A stretch of DNA of 42,952 bases from a bacterium. Its GTDB lineage: Bacteria > Zhuqueibacterota > QNDG01 > DSAB01. The stretch covers positions 1 to 42,952 of the forward strand of contig JBDRSZ010000164.1 in the NCBI GenBank assembly GCA_043824415.1. Reading direction: 5' to 3'. Position 1 is the first letter of the stretch. Each line of letters opens with the position of its first letter. A model generated the notes under the pieces. The model ran no database searches. It was not told the origin of the DNA and worked only from the letters and a program-made list of their open reading frames with translations. Below, one piece after another: positions 18,674-34,100 of the stretch. The position numbers were made by a program, and so were the translations under genes.

Positions 18674-18692
18674 TATGCATTCAGGCTAAAAA

Positions 18693-18723
18693 CGTGCGAC
18701 GCACTTCGGAAGTGCGCCGCACG
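18693..18723. terminator. GC-rich hairpin between convergent genes (bidirectional terminator or REP-like element)
   Basis: CGTGCGACGCAC-TTCGGAA-GTGCGCCGCACG. It shares the GTGCGACGCAC arm with the hairpin at 28178-28206. Confidence 0.5.
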
Positions 18724-18743
18724 TAATCTTAAGTGAGCTGTTT

Positions 18744-20693
18744 TTACTGTTTCCTCGATTTCGCTGCAACGGTGTAGAGGTACCATCCCAACAGACAGAA
18801 AACGACGGCGGAGACGACCTGGCCGAGCCATTCCGACGGGTAGTGGATTTCTAAATATTTGGGCGACTTTGAGATAATGACTGCGATGACGGCTCGTATG
18901 ACGCCGAGTATACCCACTCCGGCGATGAGACCGGATCCCAGCAGAATGCCTTGATCCTTTCCTCTCTCGATGCCTTCCTTGTCCGCACCGTATTTTTTCT
19001 CGATGAAGTGGCGCAGCATGCCTCCGATGAACACGGGCGTCATCGTGTAGAGGGGCAGGTACATGCCCACAGCGAACGGCAGGGGCGGGATTTTAAAAAG
19101 GACGACCAGGATCGAAAAAGCCGCGCCGATGCCCACGAGGTCCCACCTGAGGTTTCCGTCCAACACTCCGTCCAAGACAGTTTTCATGAGCGTGGCCTGG
19201 GGCGCCGGAAGCTCTTCGCCGCCGAATCCGTAGGCTTTGCCGAGATAATACACTGCGAGACAGACGAAGAACGCCGATCCCACAGCCCCCAAGAGTTCAC
19301 TGATCTGCTGCTTTCTTGGAGTCGCTCCCAGTAAAAATCCCGCTTTCAAATCCTGTGATATGTCTCCGGCGATGGAAGCTGAGATGCACACGATTGTGCC
19401 GATGGTGAGTGCGGTTATCTTGCCGGTCAGATCCGTCCAGCCCAGGAGTTTGAATGCGAGTCCCGTCCCCAGGAGTGTGACGATGGCCATGCCGGAGGTC
19501 GGATTTGAAGAAACACCGATCATGCCAACGATGCGGGAAGACACCGTGACGAAACAAAAAGCGAACAGGGCGATGGCCAAAGCGCTGCAGAACCGCATGA
19601 ACACGAACGTGTTGTTCCCGATGATGCCGGGGATGAACGTGATGAGAAGGACAACGATGGAGACGCCCAAAAGAACGTACTTGATGGAGAGATCGCGTTC
19701 CGTTCGCTTTGTTCCTGCGTCGAGCTGAGCCGCGCTCGAACGAAATTCCCGGATGCCGACTTTCAACGATCCGATCATCGTGGGAATCGACCTGAAAACA
19801 GTGATCAGGCCGGCTGCGGCCACGGCGCCCGCTCCGATGATGCGGATGTATCCATCCCAGATCTGCTTTGGAGTCAGCTCGCCGATGGTCGTGGCGGTCA
19901 AGTTTGAATAGTTTGAGCGGAGGTATTCGAGCGTATTCTGCCAGATTGCCGCGTCGCCGAATTTCCAGGCGATGAAGGGGATGATGAGAACCCAAGAGAC
20001 GAGGCCTCCGCCGACCATGATTGTTCCGATGCGTCGGCCGAGAATGTACCCGACACCCAACAATGCGGGTGAGGTTTCGACGCCCACGACGCCTTTCCGG
20101 AGGAATGGGAGTTTCATGAAAACTTTGTCTGGCCAGAAGTAGAGCAGGGAGATGAGTCCTTGATACAGAGCGCCGATGCCCAGTCCCTTGAATACGTTGG
20201 CCGCTGTCGATCCGCCCTCACTGGAAGCGATGAGGACCTCGGCGGCGGCTGTGCCCTCTGGGTAAGGAAGATTTTGATGTTCCTTGACGATTAAAAAATT
20301 GCGGAGAGGGATCATAAAGAGGACGCCCAGGACTCCACCACACATGGCTAAGAGTGTCATTTGATAGAGGGAGATGTTGTATCCCCAGATGAAGAGGGCG
20401 GGAATCGTGAAGATGATTCCAGAGGCCAGGGAGGAGCTGGCCGATCCGGTGGTCTGAGAGATGTTGCATTCCAAAATCGTGGATTTTCCGAGGATGGGGG
20501 TGAGCATCCTAAGGATTGCCACGGAAACGACAGCCAAGGGTATGGCCGTGCTGATGGTCAGGCCCACGCGCAGTCCCAAATAGGCGTTGGCGCTTCCGAA
20601 GACGGCTCCGAGAATCACACCGAGAATGATGGTTTTTGGGTTGAAATCCCTCATCATCACATCCGCGGGCACGTACGGCTTGTGTTCTTTCAT
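18744..20693 (-). CDS. OPT-family oligopeptide transporter
   Basis: 649 aa with around 16 TM segments. The N-terminus ..FNPKTIILGVILGAVFGSANAYLGLRVGLTISTAIP is typical of bacterial OPT proteins. Confidence 0.88.
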   Translation of the reverse strand: MKEHKPYVPADVMMRDFNPKTIILGVILGAVFGSANAYLGLRVGLTISTAIPLAVVSVAILRMLTPILGKSTILECNISQTTGSASSSLASGIIFTIPALFIWGYNISLYQMTLLAMCGGVLGVLFMIPLRNFLIVKEHQNLPYPEGTAAAEVLIASSEGGSTAANVFKGLGIGALYQGLISLLYFWPDKVFMKLPFLRKGVVGVETSPALLGVGYILGRRIGTIMVGGGLVSWVLIIPFIAWKFGDAAIWQNTLEYLRSNYSNLTATTIGELTPKQIWDGYIRIIGAGAVAAAGLITVFRSIPTMIGSLKVGIREFRSSAAQLDAGTKRTERDLSIKYVLLGVSIVVLLITFIPGIIGNNTFVFMRFCSALAIALFAFCFVTVSSRIVGMIGVSSNPTSGMAIVTLLGTGLAFKLLGWTDLTGKITALTIGTIVCISASIAGDISQDLKAGFLLGATPRKQQISELLGAVGSAFFVCLAVYYLGKAYGFGGEELPAPQATLMKTVLDGVLDGNLRWDLVGIGAAFSILVVLFKIPPLPFAVGMYLPLYTMTPVFIGGMLRHFIEKKYGADKEGIERGKDQGILLGSGLIAGVGILGVIRAVIAVIISKSPKYLEIHYPSEWLGQVVSAVVFCLLGWYLYTVAAKSRKQ

Positions 20694-21066
20694 GGTTTGT
20701 GCTCTCCTTTCGAATCGCTGAATTGAGGAGAATATCCTTCAACCATTAAGAAACGAATTTTTTTGAATAGAATCAAGAAGAAAGAGAGATTTTTTAAAAT
20801 GTGGATTCGATTATTGAGGATAGTGATTCAAAGGAGAAGATCGAGAAGATTTTTTCTGTTTAATAAGCAATTTGATTATTTCAATATCTGCGACTATTTC
20901 CTTGCATTTTCTTCATTTTTATTTATCATTATTCGAAAATACTTTCGATTGTAATTTTTTACCTTTTTTAGCCTTCATTATTGAGCGGGTGTTGGTCTTT
21001 TCGAGGGGAGAGTCGAAAAGTTGAGATACAGTGCAGATTTTTCAATTATCCAATTTGGGCTATTCC

Positions 21067-21444
21067 ATGCGCAGGAAGATAATTCCTTATGATCCTATAT
21101 TGAAGCAGCTTGCCAGGAATTTGAGGAGTAACAGTACGCTTTCTGAAGTGCTGCTGTGGCGACATTTAAAGGGCAGGCAGATGGCGGGGCATGATTTTCA
21201 CCGGCATAAGCCAATCGATCGCTATATCGTAGATTTTTATTGTTCGGAGTTGATGCTCGCTATTGAGGTCGATGGTGACAGCCATGATTTGAAGCAGGAT
21301 GAAGATGCGAAGCGACAAAAGCGGTTGGAATCGCTTGGCGTTCGGTTCCTGCGGTTTCAGGATATTGATGTTAAAAGAAATATGGCGGGTGTGCTTCAGG
21401 TGATCGAGGATTGGATTCGAGAACACACCCCGTCCCGATTCTGA
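21067..21444 (+). CDS. DUF559 (Vsr-like endonuclease fold) domain protein
   Basis: ORF track 21031..21444, ATG at 21067. The segment LRSNSTLSEVLLWRHLKGRQMAGHDFHRHKPIDRYIVDFYCSELMLAIEVDGDSHD..RQKRLESLGVRFLRF is the DUF559 pattern. Confidence 0.85.
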   Translation: MRRKIIPYDPILKQLARNLRSNSTLSEVLLWRHLKGRQMAGHDFHRHKPIDRYIVDFYCSELMLAIEVDGDSHDLKQDEDAKRQKRLESLGVRFLRFQDIDVKRNMAGVLQVIEDWIREHTPSRF

Positions 21445-21576
21445 TATTGTACAAGAGAATAGAGAATCGGGACACCCCTCTTGAGAGGGGATTTAGGGGT
21501 GTGTTGATGTAAATGAAATATCTATTGGTGCATTTACTATGCTGTAATCTGTAGTGCTTGTTAACCTGGAGTTGAT

Positions 21577-22581
21577 ATGGAAAATACGGTTATCATTTTA
21601 GGGGCTGGTGCAAGTGTCGATTATGGTTATCCGACAGGGCTTGAGCTGACTGAGTCAATTAGTGATCATGGGACAATACAGGCGGCTAAAAGGGATTTGG
21701 ACAAACATCGTCAACAGCTACAAAATTATTCACAATTAGCAACTGGACTATCTCGGATTGATGAACATTTTTTCATGTCTCGAGACTTCTCCATTGATTC
21801 ATGGTTGGCGAGAGAAGAGAATAGAATTTGTTCAGAAGCTGGGAAATTCTTAATCACATTATTAATTGCACGCAGAGAAAGAGCTCCATTCACTAGAGAA
21901 AATTTTTTTCGTCTCCAAGGAACCGATAGAACAGAAAGAAGGAATGATTGGTATAGACATCTTTCCAAAGCAATGAAAACAGATACTTTTGGTGAGTTTG
22001 GAGCGATTAATGCAAATCTTACGATAGTCACATTCAATTATGACCGATCACTGGAATACTATCTAATAAATGCAATAAAGCATGGATATCCAGGTCATTC
22101 AGATGAAGATTATAAACGACAATTGAAAAAAATAAATATCTTCCATATCTATGGTCATGTGGGCGAACTACCAGAAATAGGTGATGGGAGGATTGTTCCG
22201 TATGGTGTTCAAACTGATTTTCTTCGAGTGTTAAAAAGATCTGAAGGTTTGAGGATTATCCCGGAACTAAGAGAAGCAGATAATCCTACGATTGGAGAAA
22301 TACGAAATGGAATATCGAAAGCCAGCAATATATTCTTTGTTGGTTTTGGATATGATGCCGAGAATTTAAATTTACTAGGCTTTCCAATCCAGTCGGATCG
22401 TAACGATATAATAAAAATATCAGGGACTTTTTATAAAATGGAAGAAGCGGAAATAGAAATTGCTAAAACGCAAGTAAAGGTAATACATAATAATGGACAA
22501 GCAAGCCAAATAAAACCATACCCAGACTGTGATGCTTATAAATTTTTTCGAAGGGTAGTGATTGGTGCTCTTAATAGCTGA
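21577..22581 (+). CDS. Standalone SIR2-like (SIR2_2-type) domain protein, candidate NAD-consuming defence effector
   Basis: Ordered motifs: IILGAGASVDYGYPTGLEL (Rossmann GAGxS), IVTFNYDRSLE (TNYD-type Asn), IFHIYGHVG (HG-type His), and IFFVGFGYD. GGAG lies about 7 nt upstream of the ATG. The gene is visibly AT-rich relative to lexA next door. Confidence 0.7.
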   Translation: MENTVIILGAGASVDYGYPTGLELTESISDHGTIQAAKRDLDKHRQQLQNYSQLATGLSRIDEHFFMSRDFSIDSWLAREENRICSEAGKFLITLLIARRERAPFTRENFFRLQGTDRTERRNDWYRHLSKAMKTDTFGEFGAINANLTIVTFNYDRSLEYYLINAIKHGYPGHSDEDYKRQLKKINIFHIYGHVGELPEIGDGRIVPYGVQTDFLRVLKRSEGLRIIPELREADNPTIGEIRNGISKASNIFFVGFGYDAENLNLLGFPIQSDRNDIIKISGTFYKMEEAEIEIAKTQVKVIHNNGQASQIKPYPDCDAYKFFRRVVIGALNS

Positions 22582-22596
22582 TTCTTCAAAAACTCC

Positions 22597-22625
22597 TTGA
22601 TTTATACCTGATTTATACCTATATT
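22597..22625 (+). promoter_or_regulatory. Sigma70-like promoter of lexA with tandem 11-mer (TGATTTATACC x2), probable operator
   Basis: TTGATT, a 17-nt spacer, then TATATT. The -10 ends 7 nt before the lexA ATG and there is no SD sequence. The tandem direct repeat covers the -35 and the spacer. Confidence 0.5.
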
Positions 22626-22631
22626 CAAGCC

Positions 22632-23231
22632 ATGAACCTGACAGACAAACAGCAGGCCGTGTATCGGTATCTGCGGGAGTACATCGAGGGCAGGGGGGGG
22701 CCTCCGACGTATGACGAGATTCGGCGTCACTTCGGGTTTCAGTCGTTCCAGTCGGTACAGAAGCATCTTGCCCAGTTGGAGACAAAGGGGTACATTCGCA
22801 TTCCGGAGCGGAACAAAAGCCGGATGATCGCGCTCGTGGAGCACGGCGGAGCGACGGTGGTTCTGCCAATGGCGGGCGTCGTGGCCGCGGGGAGCCCCAT
22901 CGAGGCCATGGAGCAGCGGGAGACGGTAGACGTGCCCGAGGAGATGCTGGGGTCTGGAGACTATTTCGCCCTGAAGGTCCGGGGGAACTCGATGATCGAC
23001 GAGGGGATTGTTGACGGCGACACGATTGTCGTCCAGAGACAAGCATCGGCGGAGAACGGGCAGACGGTGGTGGCCCTCGTAGAGGGCGAGGCCACGGTGA
23101 AGAAGTTCTACCGGCGGAAGGACGGCGTGGAGCTCCGGCCGGCCAACGCAGCGATGGAGTCGATCTTTTTGCGCGGTGGGGAGCTGGTCATCCGGGGCGT
23201 GGTCGTCGGGCTTTTGCGGAAGTATCGTTAA
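22632..23231 (+). CDS. lexA: LexA repressor (S24 peptidase)
   Basis: Winged-helix N-terminus LTDKQQAVYRYLREYI..PPTYDEIRRHFGF.SFQSVQKHLAQLETKGYI, cleavage site VAAG, catalytic Ser in GNSM and Lys in TVKKFY. Confidence 0.95.
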   Translation: MNLTDKQQAVYRYLREYIEGRGGPPTYDEIRRHFGFQSFQSVQKHLAQLETKGYIRIPERNKSRMIALVEHGGATVVLPMAGVVAAGSPIEAMEQRETVDVPEEMLGSGDYFALKVRGNSMIDEGIVDGDTIVVQRQASAENGQTVVALVEGEATVKKFYRRKDGVELRPANAAMESIFLRGGELVIRGVVVGLLRKYR

Positions 23232-23254
23232 TGGAACACGGATTGAACGGATCA

Positions 23255-23430
23255 GAGATAAATCCGAAATTCGAATATCGAAGCACGAAACAAATTCGAA
23301 ATTCAAATGACCAAATATCAAAACACAGCACAGCCTCATCACTTCATCCAGTACCCAGTTTTGAACATTGGGATTTTTATCGTTTGAATTTGTTTCGAGT
23401 TTAGGATTTCGTGCTTTGAATTTTTTTCAC
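23255..23430. repeat. Long imperfect palindrome (MITE-like) in the lexA-imuB spacer
   Basis: The left arm AAATCCGAAATTCGAATATCGAAGCACGAAACAAATTCGAAATTCAAATGACC pairs with the right arm ..TTTGAATTTGTTTCGAGTTTAGGATTTCGTGCTTTGAATTT. Its outer flanks ACACGGATT (about 23236) and AGATCTGTTTCGT (about 23440) recur close together at about 33166-33204. Confidence 0.6.
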
Positions 23431-23456
23431 GGTTCCGTGAAGATCTGTTTCGTCTG

Positions 23457-24653
23457 TTGGATCCTGTTCTATTCTTATATGGACCGATGAATCGAAGTGT
23501 TCTACATCTTCGCGTGGACGGGTTTCCCGTGGCCGTCGAGCGGCTGCGGGATTCGTCTCTCAGGGGCATGCCCGTCGTCGTTTGCGCCAGGCACTCGCCC
23601 CGGTCGCTCATCTTTTCGGCCTCCCGCGAGGCCCGGGCCGAAGGCATTTGGGAAGGCATTCCCCTGACGAAGGCGCTCCAGAGGTGCAGGCGCCTCGTCG
23701 TGCTGTCTCCCGACGAAAATCTCTACCGGAAGGCGGCCGACGGAATCTCTCAGATTCTGGGGATGTACTCGCCCCTGGTAGAGTCGGGCCGCTGGGGTCG
23801 TTTTTATGTGGACATGACGGGAACGGGTCGGATTTTCGGCGGCGCTCAGGATTCGGCCTTCCGCATCCGGCGGGAGGTGCTGGGCACTCTGAATTTGGGG
23901 AGCACGCTGGGCATCGGGTCGAACAAGCTGGTGAGCGGCGTGGCAGCCCGGGTGGTGGAGACGCACGGCGATCTGTATGCGGTGCCTTCCGGGAGCGAGG
24001 CGTCGTTCCTGGCCCCGCTGGGAGTTCGGGTGCTGCCGGCCGTGAAGGATAAGAAGGACCGGATTTTGCTTGAAGAACTCAACATCCGGCTGGTGCGTGA
24101 GCTGGCGGCCCTGTCGATTCTCCAGCTTACCGTGGTTTTTCAGAAGCGCGGCATCCTCCTCTATCGGCAGTCTCGGGGTATTGACGACAGTCCGGTGCGG
24201 CCGCCGGATTCCAAGCCGTTTGTCTTAGAGGAGGCAACGCTGGCGGAGGATACGAATGACGACGGAATCCTCCTCGGCGTGCTCTATGGGATGACGGAGC
24301 GGGCGTGCCGGAGGATGCGGGGGAAGGGGGTTCTGCCTCGGACGATCTGGCTTCATATTCGACATACAGACGGGATGGACATCACGCGGCGGCTCGGGAT
24401 CAAGAAACCTGTAAACACCGATCCGATTCTTTTCGGAGAGGTCGAGCCGTTTTTCCTCAAAACCTGCTTCCGGCGGCAGCGTGTGCGGTACATGAGCGTG
24501 ACGTTCACGGATTTGATGTTTCCGTCGGCGCAGACGGACCTGCTGGAGCCGCTTTCGCAGCCGTTGAAGGAGGAGTCCTTGGTGGCGGCGCTGGACCGAA
24601 TTCGGACGAAATTTGGAGATAGGTCTGTGTATTGGGGGAGGTTGTCAAATTAA
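23457..24653 (+). CDS. imuB: Y-family DNA polymerase homologue, ImuB-like (catalytic carboxylates apparently lost)
   Basis: ORF track start 23457; an alternative ATG lies at 23487 (MNRSVLHLRVDGF). The fold pattern VDGFPVAVE..PVVVC..AREARAEGIW.G.P is Y-family. Aligned by eye to DinB, DMDCFFAAVE becomes RVDGFPVAVE and SIDEAFLD becomes RWGRFYVD. The gene sits between lexA and dnaE2. Confidence 0.8.
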   Translation: MDPVLFLYGPMNRSVLHLRVDGFPVAVERLRDSSLRGMPVVVCARHSPRSLIFSASREARAEGIWEGIPLTKALQRCRRLVVLSPDENLYRKAADGISQILGMYSPLVESGRWGRFYVDMTGTGRIFGGAQDSAFRIRREVLGTLNLGSTLGIGSNKLVSGVAARVVETHGDLYAVPSGSEASFLAPLGVRVLPAVKDKKDRILLEELNIRLVRELAALSILQLTVVFQKRGILLYRQSRGIDDSPVRPPDSKPFVLEEATLAEDTNDDGILLGVLYGMTERACRRMRGKGVLPRTIWLHIRHTDGMDITRRLGIKKPVNTDPILFGEVEPFFLKTCFRRQRVRYMSVTFTDLMFPSAQTDLLEPLSQPLKEESLVAALDRIRTKFGDRSVYWGRLSN

Positions 24654-24661
24654 GAAAACTA

Positions 24662-25107
24662 CCACGGATGGACACGGAAGAACACAGAGGATAAAAATGC
24701 AAAAATTGCTTTATAAGGATTTGACATATAAGGTTATCGGTGCGGCAAGAGCGGTGTATCGCGAACTTGGGCCCGGATATTTGGAATCTGTTTATGAAGA
24801 CGCGTTGTGTTATGAGTTGGATCAAGAGCATGTACCGTATCGCCGACAAGTCGATCTGGACGTGTGTTACAAAGATGTCGTTTTTGAAAGACGCTTCAGA
24901 GCCGATTTGCTGATCCAGGAAAAGATTTTGGTAGAGAACAAGGCCATCAAAAAGATCACACCGCAAGATGAAGCTCAGTTGCTCAATTATCTCAAAACCA
25001 CGGGGATCAAAGTCGGTTTGCTATTCAACTTCGATGCACCAAAATTCGAGATGCTGCGGAGAATCTTCTAATACTGTTTGTCCGTGTTTTTCCGTGTTCT
25101 TCTGTGG
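24662..25107 (+). mobile_element. Mini-cassette: GxxExxY ORF bracketed by ~29-bp imperfect inverted repeats
   Basis: The left arm is CCACGGATGGACACGGAAGAACACAGAGG. The reverse complement of the right arm is CCACAGAAGAACACGGAAAAACACGGACA. About 22 of 29 positions match by eye. Confidence 0.45.
24697..25071 (+). CDS. GxxExxY family protein (PD-(D/E)XK nuclease-like fold)
   Basis: ORF track 24613..25071, ATG at 24697. Contains LGPGYLESVYEDAL (GxxExxY), then RADLLI..ILVENKA and LLNYLKTTGIKVGLLFNF. Confidence 0.85.
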   Translation: MQKLLYKDLTYKVIGAARAVYRELGPGYLESVYEDALCYELDQEHVPYRRQVDLDVCYKDVVFERRFRADLLIQEKILVENKAIKKITPQDEAQLLNYLKTTGIKVGLLFNFDAPKFEMLRRIF

Positions 25108-25114
25108 TGATTGA

Positions 25115-28100
25115 ATGCATTTCATTCATCTACATGTGCATTCGCATTATTCCCTGATGCGGGGGACGATCGGGCTGGAGGAGCTATGCCACCGTATCCG
25201 TGAGTTGGGCATGGATACGGTGGCCCTGACGGACACGAACGGCATTTACGGTCTGATTTTTTTCCTCCAGATTGCCGAGGAATACGGCATCCGACCCATC
25301 ATCGGCGCGGAAGCGGTGACAGATGACGAGCGGGCTGTGCTCCTGGTCAAGAATCGGGAGGGGTACGCCAACCTCTGCCGGATTCTGACGCATCGGCACT
25401 GCGGGGAGGGGTTTGTCCTTTCCGATGATTTGCTACGGATGAGCGAAGGGCTCGTCGTCCTGAGCGATGCGATTCCCCTTTTAGAGAAATTGAATGGACG
25501 TTGCGACCTCTACGCCGAACTCGTGGGGGGACGGCCCAATCGGTCGCTCATGGATTTCTCGCGGCGGACGGGCATTCCGCCGGTAGCGACGAACGGCGTC
25601 TATTTTCTCCATCCGGAGGAGCATCGGTTTCACGCGCTTCTCCGAGCCATCGATCTGAACACGAAATTTTCCCGCCTTCCTCTTGGGGAACTGGCGCCTC
25701 CCTATGCGTGGCTTCAGTCTCCCGAAGAGATGGCCGCACGTTTTCCCCATGTTCCAGAAGCGCTGGAAAATACACTCGTCGTTGCGGAGAAATGTCGTTT
25801 CCAAGGAAATTTTGGGTCGGTGATCGATTGCGGATTCGAGGGGATGGGTCCTGACGGGATCATGCGGGAACTCCGCCGCAAATGCGAGGAGGGAGCGAAA
25901 CGCCGGTACGGGGAGGTCACATCTGCCGTCCGCGCGCGTCTGGAGTACGAGCTGGGGATTATCGAGGAGAAGGGATTCGGGGCGGTCTTCCTGATGGTGG
26001 AGGATATCGTGCGCCGGGCTCCGCGGACGTGCGGGCGCGGGTCGGCGGCGGCCAGCATTGTTTCCTACTGTCTGGGAATCACGCACGTGGATCCGCTGAG
26101 ATACAACCTCTACTTCGAGCGCTTCCTCAATCCCGGGCGGAAGGACCCCCCGGACATCGACGTGGATTTCCCCTGGGACGAACGGGATGACATCCTCGAT
26201 TATGTTTTCGACAAATACGGGCCGGAGCGGTCGGCCATGGTGGCCAACCACGTGGGCTTCCGTCCGAGGGCGGCGGTTCGGGAGATCGCCAAGGTGGTCG
26301 GCCTGCCCGACGCGGAAATCAAGCAGGTGACGGACCGGCTGGCCCAGCTGTGGTACTGGCACGGCGACACGGTCGAGGAGGTCGTGGATCATCATCCCAT
26401 CTTCCGTGGACTCCGTCTCGATCCGCCCTGGCCTGAGATTTTGGGATGGACTTCGCGGCTCTTGGGAACGCCGCGTCATCTCTCAGTGCACTGCGGGGGC
26501 GTGGTCGTCGTGCCCGGCGCATTAAGTCGGTACGTGCCGACGGAGGAAGCGCCCAAGGGCGTGCGCATCGTTCAGTGGGAAAAGGATCAGACGGAGGATT
26601 CGGGCCTCGTGAAGATCGACATCCTGGGCAACCGCTCCCTGGCGGTAATCCGTGACGCCTTGGAGGCTGTTCGGAAGAATACGGGACGGGTCATCGTGTA
26701 CGAGGATTTTAACCCTTTGGATGACCCGGAGACGCAGGCCGCCATCGCGCGGGGTGAGACACTGGGCGTGTTCTACATCGAGTCGCCCGCCACGCGCCAG
26801 CTCCAGAAGAAGGCGCGCGTGGGGGACTTCGAGCATCTGGTCATCCACAGCTCGATCATCCGCCCGGCGGCGAACGACTTTATCAACGAGTATGTCCGGC
26901 GGCTGCACGGAGAGCCGTACGAGCCGCTCCATCCGATTCTCCAAGAGGTGCTCTCGGAGACGTACGGCATCATGGTCTATCAGGAGGACGTGACGAAGAT
27001 CGCTGTGGAGATGGCGGGATTCTCGCCGGAAGAGGGCGACGGCCTGCGCAAGACGCTGTCGAAGAAGCGGAATCACCGAAAGCTGTCGGAATACCGGGAG
27101 AAGTTTGTGCGGGGCGCGCTGGCCCGAGGCATTGATCCGGACATCATCGCCAGGGTCTGGGAGATGATCCTCTCCTTCGGCGGATACAGCTTCTGCAAGC
27201 CGCACAGCGCGTCGTACGCTCTCGTGTCTTTCAGGTCGGCCTATCTGCGTGTCCATTATCCCGCGGAGTTCATGGCGGCGGTCATCAGCAATCAGGGGGG
27301 ATACTATTCGACGTTTGCCTACATCAGCGAGGCCCGGCGTATGGGACTTGTCGTGCATCCGCCGGACGTGAATGCGTCGGATCGTCCGTACACGGGGAAG
27401 GGCGGAGAAATCCGCACGGGGTTGATGCAGCTCAAAGGGCTGAAGGAGCGGGCATTAGACCGCGTCCTCGAAGAGAGGAAACGGGGAGGGCCGTACCGAT
27501 CCTTCGAAGATTTTATGAGCCGGACCTGTCTCGATCCATCGGATGTACGCATCCTCGTTAAGGCGGGATGCCTGGATTCCATCGCCGGCGGGCGCAGCCG
27601 CGCCGAACTGCTCTGGCAGACGGATGCGGGACGGAACGGACGTCCCGCATCGCCCCAAGGATCGCTCGACTTGTTCGACGAGGAGACGATCCGCGTACCG
27701 CACTTGGGGGACTACGATTTCCGCACGGCGCTCCTCCATGAGGTCGAAATTCTCGGCTTCCCTTTGAGCGTTCATCCCCTGGACCTGTACCGCGACGCAT
27801 GGGAGGGGCTTAATATTGTCCACGGCAGCGAGATGGAGAAGCATATTGGCAGACGCGTCTCCATGATCGGCTGGTGGGTGACGAACAAGATGGTGTACAC
27901 GAAGCAGGAGGAGCCGATGGCGTTCATCAGCTTCGAGGACACGACGGCGCTGTACGAGACGATTTTTTTCCCGCCGGCCTTCCGGAAGTACTGCTCGCGG
28001 TTTACTCCGGTCAGGCCTTATATTCTCCGGGGCGTGATCGAGAACGACCTGGGGGCAGTCAGCCTGCACGTTGAGGAGATGGGGTTTCTGGGGAGGGGGG

Positions 28101-28171
28101 AGGTTCGCAGGAAGAAACGAAATCTGCCCAATGCGAGGACGCGGATTCCGGCGGGGATGGAGATTCGGTGA
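25115..28171 (+). CDS. dnaE2: Error-prone DNA polymerase III alpha homologue DnaE2
   Basis: The PHP N-terminus is FIHLHVHSHYSLMRGT. At 1018 aa it has the pol IIIa core motifs (GRGSAAASIVSYCLGIT.VDP, DIDVDF, KIDILG), lies downstream of lexA-imuB, and lacks the tau-binding C-terminal extension length of DnaE1. Confidence 0.92.
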   Translation: MHFIHLHVHSHYSLMRGTIGLEELCHRIRELGMDTVALTDTNGIYGLIFFLQIAEEYGIRPIIGAEAVTDDERAVLLVKNREGYANLCRILTHRHCGEGFVLSDDLLRMSEGLVVLSDAIPLLEKLNGRCDLYAELVGGRPNRSLMDFSRRTGIPPVATNGVYFLHPEEHRFHALLRAIDLNTKFSRLPLGELAPPYAWLQSPEEMAARFPHVPEALENTLVVAEKCRFQGNFGSVIDCGFEGMGPDGIMRELRRKCEEGAKRRYGEVTSAVRARLEYELGIIEEKGFGAVFLMVEDIVRRAPRTCGRGSAAASIVSYCLGITHVDPLRYNLYFERFLNPGRKDPPDIDVDFPWDERDDILDYVFDKYGPERSAMVANHVGFRPRAAVREIAKVVGLPDAEIKQVTDRLAQLWYWHGDTVEEVVDHHPIFRGLRLDPPWPEILGWTSRLLGTPRHLSVHCGGVVVVPGALSRYVPTEEAPKGVRIVQWEKDQTEDSGLVKIDILGNRSLAVIRDALEAVRKNTGRVIVYEDFNPLDDPETQAAIARGETLGVFYIESPATRQLQKKARVGDFEHLVIHSSIIRPAANDFINEYVRRLHGEPYEPLHPILQEVLSETYGIMVYQEDVTKIAVEMAGFSPEEGDGLRKTLSKKRNHRKLSEYREKFVRGALARGIDPDIIARVWEMILSFGGYSFCKPHSASYALVSFRSAYLRVHYPAEFMAAVISNQGGYYSTFAYISEARRMGLVVHPPDVNASDRPYTGKGGEIRTGLMQLKGLKERALDRVLEERKRGGPYRSFEDFMSRTCLDPSDVRILVKAGCLDSIAGGRSRAELLWQTDAGRNGRPASPQGSLDLFDEETIRVPHLGDYDFRTALLHEVEILGFPLSVHPLDLYRDAWEGLNIVHGSEMEKHIGRRVSMIGWWVTNKMVYTKQEEPMAFISFEDTTALYETIFFPPAFRKYCSRFTPVRPYILRGVIENDLGAVSLHVEEMGFLGRGEVRRKKRNLPNARTRIPAGMEIR

Positions 28172-28177
28172 ACGGAT

Positions 28178-28206
28178 GTGCGACGCACCTCTGAGGTGCG
28201 TCGCAC
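28178..28206. terminator. Perfect 12-bp GC hairpin after dnaE2 (REP-like or terminator, no U-tract)
   Basis: GTGCGACGCACC-TCTGA-GGTGCGTCGCAC, between the convergent dnaE2 and DUF5131 genes. Confidence 0.5.
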
Positions 28207-28344
28207 GTTGGTGTGCAGTTATTCAATGAATTTGTAATTTGTGAATTCAAGCTCAGAGTTAAGAAATACAAGGTAAAAATAGCTTGAAGGCTTTAGAAAT
28301 ACAAGGTAAGATGATAGCTTTTATTACTGATCGATCAAACAGCA

Positions 28345-29070
28345 TTATAAATATGCAAAGGCAACTTTAGGCATTCCGTCCCATGTCTTTCCTTTTAATA
28401 AACGACCATTTTTCTTTTTGTTAAAACCGCCCCATTGTTTAAAAAAGAAAGGGATATAATTAGATTCACATTTTTTAAGAATGTCATTAATCCAGTACTC
28501 TTCGATCGGTCTCGCACCTGGACCTGATTCCCCACCAACGATGACCCAATCGATTCCTTTCAAGTTTAAATTGCATATGGGTCCTAATAGAGGTTCCATT
28601 GATAGAAATTTAATAGGTGCAGAAGTTGTTCTAAGATTATCGATTCGATAAATATAATCCTGACTTTCTATAGTCACTCCCATCCATATATTCGGTGTCC
28701 AATTTAGCCTGGGAGCTAATTCGGAAAGTCGATGGGATCGCTTCGTGAGTATTTGAAAAATATGCCATTCCGCTTTATTCATCACTTCGAATATCTTGAT
28801 AATGAAACTGGATGGAACGTCTTCGTGAAACAAGTCGCTCATCGAATTTACAAAAACCATTTGTGGAATTTTCCAATGTAGAGGGATTTCAATTGCATGG
28901 GGATGGAGAGTGATTTTAAATCCATTCTTGTAATTCGGTTGTCCCATAGCCTGTAATCGTTTTGACAACCTTTCTGCGTAACAATTTTTACATCCCAAAC
29001 TGATTTTGGTACAGCCTGTAATAGGATTCCAAGTCGATTCTGTCCATTCAATCAACGATTTAACAGCCAT
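28345..29070 (-). CDS. DUF5131 / phage Gp37-Gp68 family three-Cys-motif protein
   Basis: N-terminus IEWTESTWNPITGCTKISLGCKNCYAE (C-x6-C-x2-C). Also VFVNSMSDLF, ILTKR, GGESGPGARP and FFFKQWGG. The gene is AT-rich. Confidence 0.8.
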   Translation of the reverse strand: MAVKSLIEWTESTWNPITGCTKISLGCKNCYAERLSKRLQAMGQPNYKNGFKITLHPHAIEIPLHWKIPQMVFVNSMSDLFHEDVPSSFIIKIFEVMNKAEWHIFQILTKRSHRLSELAPRLNWTPNIWMGVTIESQDYIYRIDNLRTTSAPIKFLSMEPLLGPICNLNLKGIDWVIVGGESGPGARPIEEYWINDILKKCESNYIPFFFKQWGGFNKKKNGRLLKGKTWDGMPKVAFAYL

Positions 29071-29075
29071 ACAAC

Positions 29076-29906
29076 TTACTCGAATTTACTATATTTTTTA
29101 AAAATATGGTTTATGATATTTAATGCAACTGGTTTTTGAGAAGCGAATATCAAATAGTATATAACTGCGCCGCGAGAATTATACATAGGGTGTGCTTTCG
29201 GTACAATCTTAAATCCAGCTACTTCTTGAAGTCTTTTCCGAAAGGCTTTGACGATTGTTGCATTATCCTCTTTTTCAGGAAATCCAAAAAAATTACTTGT
29301 TGTTGAATAAGCAATCGAACGCCAAGATTCGTCTCCCCAGAAAATATTCATTCGGTGGATACCATTAGAGGGTACACGTTCAGGCTCGCGCCATAAGGCA
29401 TTCCTGTTAATATCCATTACTGGAAAATTGATAAATATATCGATGCTATTCATTTGGCCTGCGGTACGAATTACTTTCCAATCAAGATGCAATCCGTATG
29501 GATCTAAAATGCAGAGGCCTCTACGATAGTCTTTATATTTAACTTTTGGAAAAACTTGTGTTAATAATATTTCGTTGCAATCGCCTTCATAAATATGGAC
29601 GTCAGATCGATCACCGATATTCTCTTTCAAGAAATCGATTCTTTGTTTATCGATATCAATGAGGTAGTATTGACTGAAAGGAGGATTGATCAAGAGTGCA
29701 TTTAACGGACTTCCTTTAACAAAATCACCTGTCTTCTTTGAAATATGTATTCCACTACCGGCGAAGGCATCAATATAGATGTGTGTTAAATTGGATTGTG
29801 AAGCAAGGATTGTTGAGTACTTCGTGGCATATTCTCTGATAATATCGAGTTTTATTTCAGACCAATTTCCAATTTCATCGAACTTTAAATCATCGCTTTT
29901 TCTCAT
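29076..29906 (-). CDS. Three-Cys-motif partner protein TcmP (methyltransferase-like fold)
   Basis: Contains WSEIKLDIIREYATKY, motif-I-like YIDAFAGSGIH, and DPPY-like CILDPYG. It lies 5 nt upstream of the DUF5131 gene, which is the conserved pairing for this family. Confidence 0.7.
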   Translation of the reverse strand: MRKSDDLKFDEIGNWSEIKLDIIREYATKYSTILASQSNLTHIYIDAFAGSGIHISKKTGDFVKGSPLNALLINPPFSQYYLIDIDKQRIDFLKENIGDRSDVHIYEGDCNEILLTQVFPKVKYKDYRRGLCILDPYGLHLDWKVIRTAGQMNSIDIFINFPVMDINRNALWREPERVPSNGIHRMNIFWGDESWRSIAYSTTSNFFGFPEKEDNATIVKAFRKRLQEVAGFKIVPKAHPMYNSRGAVIYYLIFASQKPVALNIINHIFKKYSKFE

Positions 29907-30104
29907 AAGATTTTTTCCAATTCATTAAAGTGTACGGACACTATTAGTTTGAAAATATTCAGAGAAAAGCAAAATTAAAGGCAAATCATATCTATCGTCC
30001 GATATGATGACGATTGTCATCATCGATTAATGATAATGAATATTAATATTAAAAACAAATTTTTTTTATTAAAAGTTTTTTAGGGAAATTTTGCAACATT
30101 TTTC

Positions 30105-30140
30105 CGAGAATTTCGATATAATATAATACCGAGAATCTCG
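30105..30140 (+). promoter_or_regulatory. Two palindromic operator-like sites CGAGAAT(T/C)TCG upstream of padR
   Basis: CGAGAATTTCG (30105-30115) and the perfect odd palindrome CGAGAATCTCG (30130-30140) are 25 bp apart centre to centre. They flank a TATAAT-like box. GGAGG and the ATG lie downstream. Confidence 0.45.
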
Positions 30141-30165
30141 ATAAAATGTTGCGGAGGATCAAAGG

Positions 30166-30492
30166 ATGGCATTGACTTTGAACGAACAGATACTCCTTCT
30201 GGCTATCTGGAAGCTGGGAGATGAGGCATACGGCGTCCGATTGCACGAGTTGGTGTGTAATTATCTTGGAAAGGACGTGGCCTTCGGAACACTGTACAAC
30301 AACTTGGACCAGTTGATTAAAAAGGGGTATGCCATATCGTACAAGGGCGATCCGACGGCGGTTCGCGGGGGCAAGGCGAAGGTCTACTATCAGATCACGA
30401 AAGAGGGGACGGCGGCTTTGCAGGCAGCAAGAGAACTCCAGGAGAAACTCTGGGATGGAATCCCCAAGTTTGCTATCGGAAGGGGAAAGTAA
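30166..30492 (+). CDS. PadR family transcriptional regulator
   Basis: LLLAIWKLGDEAYGVRLHELV..GTLYNNLDQLIKKGYAIS..KVYYQITKEG is the PadR winged-helix pattern. Confidence 0.88.
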   Translation: MALTLNEQILLLAIWKLGDEAYGVRLHELVCNYLGKDVAFGTLYNNLDQLIKKGYAISYKGDPTAVRGGKAKVYYQITKEGTAALQAARELQEKLWDGIPKFAIGRGK

Positions 30493-30494
30493 CG

Positions 30495-33137
30495 ATGCGT
30501 GCAAAGAAGCCGCCGCGGCTGGCGGAATGGATCATCCGCCGCTTATCCCAGTACGAAAGCCGGTTCTCTCTTGATGGAGATCTCAGAGAGGTTTTCGAGG
30601 ATATCGCCCGAAGAGAAAATGAGGGGAAAGCAAGGTCGTGGTATTGGTCGCAGACGAGGAGAGCGTTGATTAAGTATCCTGTTTTGACTTGGAGGATGAA
30701 TATGGGCATGTTGAAAAATCACATCACGCTGGCAGTGAGGAGCATGAAGAAGCACAAGGGGTACACGTTCATCAACCTGGTAGGGTTGGCCGCCGGCCTT
30801 GCCTGTTGCATGATCATCCTGGTTTACGTGAATCATGAGTTAAGTTACGACATGTATCATCCGGATGTGGAGCGCATTTACCGTGTGCTCGAATATCGGA
30901 AGGTGCCGGCGGGTGAATTTATTATGGCCAGAATCAGCCCGATGGTGGCTATTGTCCTGGATGAACAGTTCACTCAGGTCGAACACACAGTCAGGATAAT
31001 GCCGGTATCCAACGTCCTGGTTCGATGTCATGGAATTCCATTCTACGAAGACCGCGTAATGTATACTGATGCGTCGCTGTTGGATGTTTTTTCGATTCCT
31101 GTTCTTAAGGGGAATCCTGAAGAGGCGCTGAAACATCCAGGTCGGGCGGTCCTGACTTCGAGTCTGGCGAAGAAATATTTCGGAAACGAGGATCCCATGG
31201 GCAAGGAGATGGAGATCATCGATCCTCTTCATGAACGCGTCTACGGAGACACGCGCAGATTACACGTTACTGTCTCAGGAGTGGTGGCCGATCCACCGTC
31301 GAATACGCATGTCAAGCAGGGAATCCTGCTCTCCCTCCAAGTATTCAGGGATCATCCCATTCTGAGCGAATGGCACGCAGGGATGACGCATACCTATGTG
31401 AAACTATCGCCGAATACACAACTGACGGATTTTGAGAAAGCCATCGAACGGCTGGCTTATGACTACGTATCCAGAGATCTTTCCGCATGGGGTCAGACAC
31501 GCGAGTATTTCCTCCAGCCCATGAAGGACATCCATTTCTGCCGGGAGATCAGAGGATTGCCTGTCCGAGACGAGTTGGAGCCTTCCGGCAGCCGTGCTTA
31601 TTTTACGATTTACGGCGTCATCGCGATGCTCATCCTGCTGATCGGGACGATGAATTTTGTCAACCTTTCGAATGCGAGGGCTGTCCACCGCATCAAAGAT
31701 GTGGGGCTTCGTAAGGTTCTCGGAGCGAAACGGAGGGAATTAATCCGGCAGTTCCTGAGCGAATCCGTCCTCATCACGCTGATCGCATCGGGTTTCGGGT
31801 TTCTTCTTGCCAGGGTGTTGCTGCCGTTCTTCGTCGCTTTTTCTGGATCGACGGTTTCGTATTCGGCTCTTTTTCAGTCAAGACTTCTGCTGGCTACGGG
31901 CGGGCTGGTGCTTTTCATCGGACTTCTGTCGGGGCTCTATCCGGCCTTCGTTCTGACGACGTTCAAGCCGGACCGCATCCTGCGCGGGACATCCTCCTGG
32001 ACGCGCGGATCATCGGCGTTGAGGGTGCTTGTCGTGGGTCAGTTTGTCATTTCGATCTTCTTAGCTGTGGGAACGCTTACGGTGTCCCGACAACTGATCT
32101 ACATGCGCGGAGGGGACCTGGGTTTCCGGTCGGAAGCTCAGTATGTCATCCCGTTTCGAAGAAACGGGGAGATACGGAAACAGGTCAAAGTTTTGAAGAC
32201 GGAACTCCTGAAACACCCTCAGGTGTTGAGCGCGGCCGCCTCTTCGAGTGTGCCCGGCCGGCCGATGCGGGAAGGACATCTCAAATGGTCCGATGACAAG
32301 CTGGATAAACCGTTGAAACTGGTGTTCCTTTCCTGCGACGAAGATTTTCTCTCTCAGTTCCGGATCGGCATGGCGGCCGGACGCGCTTTCGATGAGGCAA
32401 AGAACGATGAAAACAGCGCGTTCATCATCAACGAAGCGGCTACGAAGCATTTGGGTTACGCTTCCAAAGAGGAGGCCTTGGGGGATCGTCTTTATGAAGG
32501 TACGTACTGGAAAACCATCGTCGGTGTGGTCCGGAATTTCCATTTTCAGGGCATGCAATCGGAAGTCGAGCCGATTTACATGGAAGTCTCTCCCTCCCGC
32601 TATGACATGCTCACGCTCAACTTAGCATCAGCAGACCTTCCCGCTACGCTCCGATTCATCGAAAATACCTGGCAAAGTTTCTGGCCGGACATTCCTTTCG
32701 AAGGTTTCTTTCTTGACGACGATTTCAACCTGCAGTACCTGAAGGAGATGCAGATGGGGCGGATGCTGGGCATCCTGACGATGATGGGCTTGATCATTTC
32801 CTGTATGGGTCTTTTGGGTCTGGCGTCATTTCTGGTGCAGCACCGCACGAAGGAAATCGGGATCCGCAAGGTACTGGGCGCTTCTGCGCCGGATGTCATG
32901 GTCCTGCTTTCGAGGCAATTTCTATTCTTGGTACTGATCGCCAATGTGATTGCTGTACCCATCGCTTACATGACTGCCGTTCGCTGGCTGGAAGATTTTG
33001 CATACCGCATTCGGCCAAGTTGGATCCTTTTTGCTATATCCGGTGGCGCGGCACTCCTTCTCGCACTGATGGCAGTCGGATTCCATACGCTGCACGCCGC
33101 CCGTGCCAATCCCGTGGATAGTCTGCGATACGAGTAA
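30495..33137 (+). CDS. Duplicated FtsX/MacB-type ABC transporter permease (ADOP-like orphan permease)
   Basis: 880 aa starting 2 nt after padR. The N-terminal PPRLAEWIIRRL leader is typical of PadR-linked permeases. There are two FtsX 4-TM modules (..RIKDVGLRKVLGAKRRELI.. and ..RTKEIGIRKVLGASAPDVM..), each preceded by a large periplasmic domain. Confidence 0.88.
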   Translation: MRAKKPPRLAEWIIRRLSQYESRFSLDGDLREVFEDIARRENEGKARSWYWSQTRRALIKYPVLTWRMNMGMLKNHITLAVRSMKKHKGYTFINLVGLAAGLACCMIILVYVNHELSYDMYHPDVERIYRVLEYRKVPAGEFIMARISPMVAIVLDEQFTQVEHTVRIMPVSNVLVRCHGIPFYEDRVMYTDASLLDVFSIPVLKGNPEEALKHPGRAVLTSSLAKKYFGNEDPMGKEMEIIDPLHERVYGDTRRLHVTVSGVVADPPSNTHVKQGILLSLQVFRDHPILSEWHAGMTHTYVKLSPNTQLTDFEKAIERLAYDYVSRDLSAWGQTREYFLQPMKDIHFCREIRGLPVRDELEPSGSRAYFTIYGVIAMLILLIGTMNFVNLSNARAVHRIKDVGLRKVLGAKRRELIRQFLSESVLITLIASGFGFLLARVLLPFFVAFSGSTVSYSALFQSRLLLATGGLVLFIGLLSGLYPAFVLTTFKPDRILRGTSSWTRGSSALRVLVVGQFVISIFLAVGTLTVSRQLIYMRGGDLGFRSEAQYVIPFRRNGEIRKQVKVLKTELLKHPQVLSAAASSSVPGRPMREGHLKWSDDKLDKPLKLVFLSCDEDFLSQFRIGMAAGRAFDEAKNDENSAFIINEAATKHLGYASKEEALGDRLYEGTYWKTIVGVVRNFHFQGMQSEVEPIYMEVSPSRYDMLTLNLASADLPATLRFIENTWQSFWPDIPFEGFFLDDDFNLQYLKEMQMGRMLGILTMMGLIISCMGLLGLASFLVQHRTKEIGIRKVLGASAPDVMVLLSRQFLFLVLIANVIAVPIAYMTAVRWLEDFAYRIRPSWILFAISGGAALLLALMAVGFHTLHAARANPVDSLRYE

Positions 33138-33383: not shown

Positions 33384-33941
33384 ATGTATAAAATGACTCC
33401 TAAACGTATGTTCTTCACGAAGGGGGTGGGTTTTCACAAGAACAAGCTTCAGAGTTTTGAGTTGGCTCTCCGTGATGCCGGGATTGAAAAATGCAATATC
33501 GTTTCAGTTTCGAGTATTTATCCTTCGGATTGTAAAATTATTTCCAAATCGAAGGGACTCCCGGAACTCCAGCCCGGACAAATCACGTTTATGGTCATGG
33601 CAAGGGAGAGCACGGATGAACCCAATCGTCTCGTTTCCGCAGCCATAGGTTTGGCACAACCTTACGACAAGCAGCAGTATGGTTACATCAGTGAACATCA
33701 TTCGTTCGGACAGACGATGAAAAAGGCAAGAGATTTTGCAGAGGATTTGGCTGCGACGATGCTGGCATCGACGTTGGGCATCGAGCTCGACCCGGATAAA
33801 GCCTGGGATGAGAGGAAACAGCTTTATATCACTGAAAAGAATAAACAGTTTGTGAGCCGAGGCACCGCCCAATCGGCTGAGGGCCACAAAGAGAGTTTGT
33901 GGACCACGGTCATCGCTTGTGCGGTCTTTCTGTTAGAATGA
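33384..33941 (+). CDS. pdaD: Pyruvoyl-dependent arginine decarboxylase
   Basis: [43 protein letters not shown] matches the PdaD N-terminus, including the self-cleaving Ser-Ser site. Confidence 0.88.
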
Positions 33942-34100
33942 ACTATTCACGCACTTCCATTTTTTATTCCCTCTATCCTCAGTGCGGTAAGTTGCAGGTG
34001 ACTAAAGTTACAAGTGAACTAAAGTACCCAAAGTCGATTAAGACGGAATTTTGCACAATAACTATAAAGTTGACTGACGGAAAGTTATAGCGTTTTCAAG

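Follow-up and report, generated by a model that had tools for sequence, protein, structure and literature searches.

Does the most GC-rich (guanine plus cytosine) and compositionally deviant part of a genome have to be foreign? The question is raised by a locus of candidate division KSB1, an uncultured bacterial phylum. The locus lies in contig JBDRSZ010000164.1 (C164), which was analysed over its whole length of 42,952 nucleotides (hereinafter, the window) and is the longest contig of assembly GCA_043824415.1 (3.88 Mb, 492 contigs, N50 10 kb, GC 0.495, about 90% complete). Here, a GC-rich SOS operon consisting of lexA, an imuB-like gene and dnaE2 is flanked by two AT-rich islets. A previous sequence-only reading regarded all three blocks as accretions at one hotspot. 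We compared the locus with those of 40 KSB1 relatives (n = 41 with the source genome), ranked by whether they share its family, its order or only its phylum. The comparison indicates that the mosaic is probably a long-resident operon invaded by younger AT-rich DNA, which is an ordinary kind of mosaic.

Likelihood segmentation of the region from 17 to 34 kb places change points at 20721, 22652, 28219 and 30151. Together with a GC profile in 500-bp steps, it reproduces almost exactly the borders previously drawn by eye, and it agrees with the view of a window of intermediate GC (0.4997) that contains three contrasting blocks. These are given below with their GC percentiles among all 1-kb windows of the assembly.

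20721-22651: block A, AT-rich, GC 0.377, 1.4th percentile
22652-28218: block B, GC-rich, GC 0.585, 98.8th percentile
28219-30150: block C, AT-rich, GC 0.344, 0.4th percentile

The profiles of GC, of GC at third codon positions (GC3) and of tetranucleotides are not flat, and all three blocks are outliers. Specifically, the dnaE2 stretch tops the assembly for GC at the 1.8-, 3- and 5.5-kb scales. Compared with random segments of matching size, A and B lie at the 99.5th percentile of tetranucleotide distance to the genome and C at the 100th, while the sequences flanking the three blocks have a profile typical of the genome. GC3 is 0.81 for lexA, 0.74 for the imuB-like gene and about 0.76-0.77 for dnaE2, and 0.25, 0.34 and 0.31 for the SIR2-like, DUF5131 and TcmP (three-Cys-motif partner) genes of the islets. 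The genome mean over 1897 long open reading frames (ORFs) is 0.595 (sd 0.083), with a 1st percentile of 0.326. The previously described antisense ORFs (154-332 aa) are present. Block B is itself split by two AT-rich inserts, at 23232-23456 (GC 0.378) and at the GxxExxY gene, 24613-25071 (GC 0.434), so that the mosaic comprises seven blocks or more.

Pfam, NCBIfam and PADLOC confirm the gene identities proposed from sequence alone. The operon and its promoter are composed of the following features.

22597-22625, + strand: lexA promoter TTGATT-17-TATATT overlapping the direct repeat TATACC-N5-TATACC, a candidate LexA operator (conserved motif, promoter scan)
22632-23231, + strand: lexA (GC 0.62; Pfam LexA_DNA_bind and Peptidase_S24)
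23487-24653, + strand: catalytically inactive Y-family polymerase, imuB-like iPolY (Pfam IMS and IMS_C; longest ORF from 23457)
25115-28171, + strand: dnaE2, error-prone C-family polymerase of 1018 aa (GC 0.606; PHP, DNA_pol3_alpha, finger and HHH_6 domains)

LexA scores 194 bits against TIGR00498 (cut-off 111) and contains the winged-helix and S24 domains; the Ala-Gly cleavage site (VAAG) and the Ser/Lys dyad (GNSM and VKKF) can be read from the DNA. The gene is single copy, and no second lexA was found in the assembly. Between it and the PolY gene there is no ORF. The PolY protein (388-398 aa) scores below every DinB cut-off, and in the alignment with E. coli DinB its residues at the D8, D103 and E104 positions are R, G and R, respectively. 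Its domains and the DinB alignment fill its whole length, with no C-terminal extension and no ImuB-C domain, and the label imuB is only approximate. A search of the whole assembly for imuA with NF033429 did not detect the gene; it gave only a sub-threshold match of 46 bits, which lies in a 363-aa frame that is RecA-like in appearance, as in control genomes. DnaE2 scores 615 bits against the NCBIfam error-prone model, under the cut-off of 939 and under the 708 bits of a DnaE1 model. A separate dnaE1-type gene on contig C186 encodes about 1143 aa, with 32-35% identity to DnaE2.

In 14 relatives of the order, namely those in which the 5' end of lexA was captured, the gene is preceded by an identical promoter and operator motif. 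The 30 nt 5' of lexA are essentially invariant in these members (cTTGAyTTATACCTnnnnTATACCTATATT), with the -35 and -10 hexamers 17 nt apart and overlapping the direct repeat. The lexA promoter holds the sole exact copy of TATACC-N5-TATACC in the 3.88-Mb assembly. Judged by its conservation and position, the repeat is a candidate LexA operator of this KSB1 order. Because the assembly contains a single exact copy, the SOS regulon may comprise little beyond this operon. In a Nitrospira metagenome-assembled genome (MAG; L104, 8213-8770), the S24-peptidase repressor that heads the cassette has an XRE-type HTH_3/HTH_31 domain, not the LexA DNA-binding domain.

The operon is conserved in the relatives, where its genes were located by tblastn, since gene calling by longest ORF picks antisense ORFs in GC-rich loci. 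Orthologues of dnaE2 are present in most of the 40 relatives, with identities of 66-82% for members of the family, 61-71% for those of the order and 51-58% for those of the phylum; outside the phylum, identity is only 49-54%. Parts of the lexA/imuB-like/dnaE2 operon are collinear in 18 KSB1 relatives, 16 of which have all three genes. These 18 relatives, the fall of identity with taxonomic distance, the sole lexA, the conserved operator and the synteny with a DUF72 gene contradict the view of the SOS cassette as an accreted module. In the dnaE2 orthologues of two phylum-level relatives (G035:C66 and G037:C11), an otherwise open frame of about 1020 aa contains one in-frame TGA each. The DnaE2 proteins of all five members of family f3 (G013, G019, G025, G028 and G030) have an insertion of about 45 residues near residue 840-850, which splits the match while the reading frame stays open.

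The flanks of the three blocks contain the following genes.

18744-20693, - strand: OPT oligopeptide transporter, native left flank, GC 0.554 (Pfam OPT, E 3e-93)
30166-33137, + strand: PadR-MacB, with PadR at 30166-30492
33384-36091, + strand: pyruvoyl arginine decarboxylase, deoxyhypusine synthase and an arginase-family gene
36109-37044, - strand: DUF72 gene, ancestral right-hand neighbour of dnaE2 (PF01904)
37179-40777, - strand: purQ and purL
41014-42390, + strand: PAS kinase

The DUF72 gene is 14-378 bp from dnaE2 in four relatives (G001, G003, G012 and G037) and 7.9 kb from it in the window. In G001, of the nearest genus, DUF72, purQ-purL and the PAS kinase come after the cassette, the same block order as in the window. 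The DNA between dnaE2 and DUF72 is in part AT-rich and foreign (TcmP-DUF5131) and in part of native composition (PadR-MacB and the polyamine genes). The MacB permease was also considered as a marker of right-flank synteny and is unusable, with dozens of paralogues per genome. On the left, OPT has a typical tetranucleotide profile and orthologues 72-88% identical in the relatives, but these are on other contigs. The genes 5' of lexA in KSB1 relatives are unrelated (radical SAM, TetR, PhoH-PIN, DctM, response regulator and cytochrome genes). In G028 (L034, 2-1105), a hybrid histidine kinase 54% identical to the product of window 10346-12286 lies directly 5' of lexA. In the window some 10 kb separate the kinase gene from lexA, and this stretch, too, may have been inserted or rearranged later.

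The DUF72 neighbourhood extends beyond KSB1. The gene is at most 400 bp 3' of dnaE2 in 10 of the 78 unique cassette loci, these 10 being from two phyla (KSB1 and Nitrospirota), and in the short locus L020 of G003; in four more cassette loci it is within 4 kb. Loci with DUF72 near dnaE2 are L013, L020, L023, L027, L104, L071, L077, L090, L092, L097 and L099. The DUF72 protein Tm1631 is a predicted repair enzyme of the endonuclease-IV type (PMC3828134), which makes DUF72 a possible genuine partner of the cassette in function.

Why, then, is a resident operon so GC-rich? The paralogue dnaE1 of the same genome serves as a control for the composition of dnaE2. In 17 of 17 KSB1 genomes, dnaE2 has a higher GC than dnaE1, by 8 points on average (Wilcoxon p 1.5e-5). 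Specifically, the mean excess is 5 points at first (GC1), 7 at second (GC2) and 12 at third codon positions. Gly, Ala, Arg and Pro together make up 30% of DnaE2 and 24% of DnaE1, and the share is higher in DnaE2 in all 17 genomes. GC3 in the source genome is 0.77 for dnaE2 and 0.71 for dnaE1, and the other top-GC ORFs of the assembly are housekeeping genes (PdxS, GDP-mannose dehydratase and urocanase). The GC of the cassette or dnaE2 exceeds that of its flanks in 72 of the 78 unique loci, which come from several phyla, and regression of dnaE2 GC on flank GC gives a slope of 0.73. The same excess over the host is present in every relative and is therefore not the mark of a recent transfer. Block B is the upper tail of the native GC distribution combined with a GC-rich protein composition, not a transfer scar. 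Members of the order without the cassette are AT-richer, with dnaE1 GC3 of 0.36 (n=11) versus 0.59 (n=17; Mann-Whitney p 0.0012, no phylogenetic correction; dnaE1 segments L109-L127 and L196-L206 of genomes G001-G030). An association of dnaE2 presence with GC-rich genomes has been reported (PMC3919608; PMC3274465). Our literature search found nothing on a GC excess of the cassette over its host, only on dnaE2 presence versus genomic GC.

The AT-rich blocks have a different distribution. The left islet, block A, contains two genes.

21031-21444, + strand: DUF559 gene of the Vsr-like endonuclease fold, GC 0.46 (Pfam DUF559, E 1e-29)
21577-22581, + strand: solo SIR2-like gene, GC 0.366 (SIR2_2 22.3 bits, below the cut-off of 24.5)

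DUF559 has three paralogues elsewhere in the genome (29-43% identity). The PADLOC SIR2 match of the SIR2-like gene is confined to the N-terminus, and no partner domain or gene was found at the locus. A homologue is missing in 39 of the 40 relatives; the single match, in a distant member of the phylum, is 27% identical. The family is rare (362 matches among 5.8 billion proteins, the best full-length one at 45% identity), and its members are solo genes beside transposase, resolvase or Schlafen-like genes.

The right islet, block C, contains a pair of genes; one palindrome lies just before its left border and another at its far edge.

28178-28206: perfect palindrome with a 14-bp stem just 3' of the dnaE2 stop, a dispersed repeat
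28345-29070, - strand: DUF5131 gene (radical-SAM-related, phage Gp37/Gp68 type), PDC-M41B (PF07505 327 bits; PDC-M41B E 6e-119)
29076-29906, - strand: TcmP gene, PDC-M41A (TIGR04474 198 bits versus a cut-off of 53; PDC-M41A E 7e-77)
30093-30152: palindrome with 30-nt arms 5' of PadR, at the far edge of the islet

The two genes are adjacent, 5 nt apart, and both are full-length PDC-M41 matches. TcmP is present in 3 of the 41 KSB1 genomes. The palindrome at 30093-30152 is probably the PadR operator. That the compositional transitions coincide with repeats or hairpins holds only in part. The hairpin at 28178-28206 exists but is a dispersed palindrome, with copies at 18691-18724 (after the OPT stop) and on contigs C82 and C329; the tandem repeat at 22603-22625 corresponds to the conserved operator of lexA; and direct repeats bracketing either islet were not found. 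Specifically, neither islet has bracketing direct or inverted repeats, and the islet borders share no 9-mers. There is no tRNA, integrase or transposase gene between 20.7 and 30.15 kb, and no tRNA and no Rfam family anywhere in the window. Domain scans thus confirm the earlier remark that no integrase or transposase is visible. Two features of a classical genomic island are therefore found at the islets (deviant composition and absence from relatives), while integrase, tRNA, attachment (att) sites and direct repeats are missing.

Both internal spacers of the operon are occupied as well.

23232-23456: palindromic repeat resembling a miniature inverted-repeat transposable element (MITE), AT-rich (GC 0.378), filling the lexA-imuB spacer, with about 10 related copies on other contigs
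24661-25108, + strand: inserted element with a GxxExxY / PD-(D/E)XK_3 ORF (ATG 24697 to stop 25071) and 28-nt inverted repeats

The ORF of the second element matches TIGR04256 (138.9 bits versus a cut-off of 35) and PF13366 (E 2e-38). Its inverted repeats, 24661-24688 and 25081-25108, are 82% complementary, and the element fills the gap between the PolY stop and the dnaE2 start exactly. The repeat to which the right arm belongs is found in 30 further copies in the genome. The unit of that repeat, a CCGTG-rich stretch of 37-45 nt, lies here at the gene end (25075-25115). Paralogues of the GxxExxY gene are present elsewhere in the genome, and the imuB-dnaE2 spacer also holds such a gene in G006 (39% identity) and G028 (67%); we infer from this distribution that GxxExxY genes are mobile. 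In uncolonised relatives the cassette spacers are 3-71 bp. An IS200-like Y1 transposase gene is in the lexA-imuB spacer of G012 and G022 and in a cassette spacer of G001. Genes of this type, encoding 146-170 aa, were located at L013 11418-11930, L022 12923-13405 and L023 13602-14042.

Thus, the comparison with relatives separates the blocks: the cassette is conserved, and the AT-rich islets are not found in most relatives. Of the proposed accretion, the part on the islets is supported, as these are lineage-specific additions, and the part on the SOS cassette is not, as the cassette is resident. We propose the following history. An old operon of lexA, an inactive PolY gene and dnaE2, under LexA control and serving translesion synthesis, would have been inherited within the KSB1 order. 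Its GC content would reflect proteins rich in Gly, Ala, Arg and Pro, which raise GC1 and GC2, and codons in the upper tail of the GC3 range of the genome, where housekeeping genes are also found. Later, AT-rich DNA would have been inserted in this lineage at both borders (DUF559 and the solo SIR2-like gene on the left, TcmP-DUF5131 on the right) and in both internal spacers (the MITE-like repeat between lexA and PolY, and the GxxExxY nuclease-fold gene with its inverted repeats between PolY and dnaE2). Genes of native composition, namely PadR-MacB and the polyamine genes, would also have moved between dnaE2 and DUF72. As both foreign inserts and native genes have arrived there, the operon borders appear to be general sites of rearrangement and landing. 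Dispensability and normal repression of the operon presumably account for its tolerance of insertions. The islets themselves may act in defence.

Other explanations of the mosaic have to be weighed against this history. An assembly chimera of a metagenome bin might be suspected in so fragmented a MAG, the more so as the window is its longest contig. Contigs of other assemblies and runs, obtained through exact-protein look-ups, match the window at 99.96-100% across three junction regions (21717-23289, 28100-30589 and 28125-29487). A fourth independent contig has the gene order GNAT-DUF6398-OPT-DUF559 as in the window, according to gene calls only and not an alignment, and thereby repeats the OPT-DUF559 junction. 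The exact junction pattern was absent from the JGI metagenome contigs searched. KSB1 genes syntenic with relatives are on both flanks. The mosaic is not an assembly chimera, an explanation that these matches render scarcely conceivable. It is also very improbable that the cassette was recently acquired from a GC-rich donor and that all three blocks are accretions at one hotspot. That view can point to the most GC-rich stretch of the assembly with its 99.5th-percentile tetranucleotide distance, to the nearest dnaE2 genes outside the phylum, which come from GC-rich Nitrospira, Syntrophobacterales and Acidobacteria, and to the lateral spread of such cassettes held in the literature (Erill et al. 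2006, as cited in PMC3919608). It has to contend with orthologues 61-82% identical across the order versus 49-54% outside the phylum, with the conserved operator, gene order and DUF72 synteny, with the presence of the sole lexA in the cassette, and with a GC3 just 6 points over that of dnaE1, inside the native range. Recent acquisition of the cassette is thus largely refuted.

Several observations do weigh against a purely resident operon with randomly placed inserts. Monophyly of the window's family is rejected by the dnaE2 data (approximately unbiased test, p-AU 0.00017) but not by the dnaE1 data (0.16); probably, either some cassettes were exchanged within the order or composition has distorted the tree, and 'purely vertical' is too strong. 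The AT-rich relatives G002, G006 and G007 have a dnaE2 GC3 excess over dnaE1 of 22-30 points, which cannot be explained by amino-acid composition. Insertion scars (direct repeats, att sites) were not found at the islet borders. Both true TcmP-DUF5131 pairs of KSB1, in the window and in G028, are directly 3' of dnaE2, and the pair is also beside the cassette in one Nitrospira MAG (L104), a recurrence that exceeds the expectation for random insertion. The first of these observations would suit a GC excess upheld not by protein composition and native codon usage but by repeated horizontal replacement from GC-richer lineages (source-sink) or by GC-biased gene conversion at a recombination-prone locus, as would the one-sided excess (17/17 and 72/78), the slope of 0.73, the AT-richer cassette-free members of the order, and G007 and G012, which belong to different families yet are alike in cassette affinity and left-flank genes. 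Branch lengths between members of the family are similar for dnaE2 and dnaE1, and therefore no recent replacement is visible; moreover, the window has only a small GC3 excess (+6 points), compositional attraction may underlie the grouping of the AT-rich pair G005/G020, and the GC comparison is without phylogenetic correction. On balance, this explanation is a minority possibility that retains some weight. The excess in 17/17 genomes and 72/78 loci, reaching 30 GC3 points in AT-rich hosts, is the basis for supposing that a process specific to the locus maintains it, through GC-biased conversion by repeated recombinational replacement or through source-sink flow in which cassettes pass from GC-rich into AT-rich lineages and are then lost there; we consider such a process unlikely. 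As a lesser variant, the dnaE2 3' flank would be a preferred landing site for TcmP-DUF5131 modules. A functional neighbourhood, in which the SOS operon shares its work or its regulation with TcmP-DUF5131 and possibly with SIR2/DUF559, for example in a DNA-modification or repair step tied to translesion synthesis, would account for the pair being next to the cassette in three genomes from two phyla. The arrangement differs in each: the pair is convergent with the cassette in the window, co-directional with it in G028, and divergent from the repressor gene across a 96-bp spacer in L104. The pair is at just 3 of about 78 cassette loci, however, a stop codon interrupts TcmP of G028, the motif of the LexA operator is confined to the lexA promoter, and the SIR2-like homologues have no repair context. 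We consider a functional neighbourhood improbable, and the suggested tie between mutagenesis and immunity is unsupported, the neighbours of KSB1 cassettes being unrelated housekeeping genes. A general linkage of TcmP-DUF5131 with the cassette was examined in Nitrospirales, where 33 of 201 genomes carry TcmP, and was rejected: none of 32 further pairs has lexA, PolY/imuB or dnaE2 within about 9 kb. We conclude that the association is positional, reflecting a tolerant landing site at a dispensable, normally repressed operon. The alternative of a shared integration hotspot is the better reading, with modest support, in that GxxExxY or IS200-like genes occupy the corresponding spacers of relatives.

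G007 (L016) and G012 (L023) have four genes 5' of lexA in common and group together in the dnaE2 tree, contrary to the dnaE1 tree. Either a larger segment may have moved between the families or both may have kept an ancestral arrangement.

An old resident operon with young AT-rich insertions bears on how composition is read. A block can be the most GC-rich of a genome and an outlier in tetranucleotides without being foreign: in this case it is the inherited operon, intrinsically shifted in composition, and only the AT-rich pieces were imported. A repressed, dispensable operon can act as a recurrent landing pad for small selfish genes. The locus also provides a candidate direct-repeat LexA operator for the order, and the known link of dnaE2 presence with genomic GC appears within a single order. 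If a locus-specific process does maintain the GC excess, the cassette could be used to trace the association of DnaE2 with genomic GC, which has long been noted but lacks an explanation.

The AT-rich islets resemble defence islands in deviant composition, absence from relatives, defence-type or selfish genes and a variable locus. They differ in having no integrase, tRNA, att site or direct repeat and in size, each being less than 2 kb with one or two genes. Both components of the PADLOC candidate PDC-M41 (TcmP TIGR04474 and DUF5131 PF07505) are present, in a family that is only a candidate for defence and whose DUF5131 component is mentioned in a single paper as radical-SAM-related; the position beside dnaE2 recurs in G028 and one Nitrospira MAG. 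The SIR2-like gene has no SLOG, HerA, Argonaute or TIR partner, unlike the SIR2 defence systems (Thoeris ThsA, DSR, SIR2-HerA and SIR2-pAgo). The insert before dnaE2 is similar to spacer-settling GxxExxY and IS200-like or REP-type elements, namely a small nuclease-fold ORF between inverted repeats, placed from stop to start and with paralogues elsewhere; the mobility of GxxExxY genes is suggested by distribution, not by observed transposition.

The closest known relatives of the operon are two types of mutagenesis cassette. With the LexA-regulated imuA-imuB-dnaE2 'adaptive mutagenesis cassette' (Abella 2004, Erill 2006, as cited in PMC3919608), it shares the linkage to an SOS repressor, an inactive Y-family protein 5' of dnaE2, a patchy distribution among relatives, and a dnaE2 presence that goes with higher genomic GC (PMC3919608, PMC3274465). 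It differs in having no imuA and no ImuB-C extension and in carrying lexA inside the operon. The DnaE2B-iPolY-RecA class of putative mutasomes, with a gbDinB2-like inactive PolY (PMC12926913, NAR 2026), is similar in its gene layout, in that dnaE2 adjoins an inactive PolY in a genome without detected imuA or a true imuB with ImuB-C. The window operon differs from this class in also carrying the only lexA found in the organism and the direct-repeat operator. Thus, the cassette fits the DnaE2-iPolY-RecA class rather than the canonical imuA-imuB-dnaE2 cassette, and it adds the phylum KSB1 to the imuA-less DnaE2-iPolY class.

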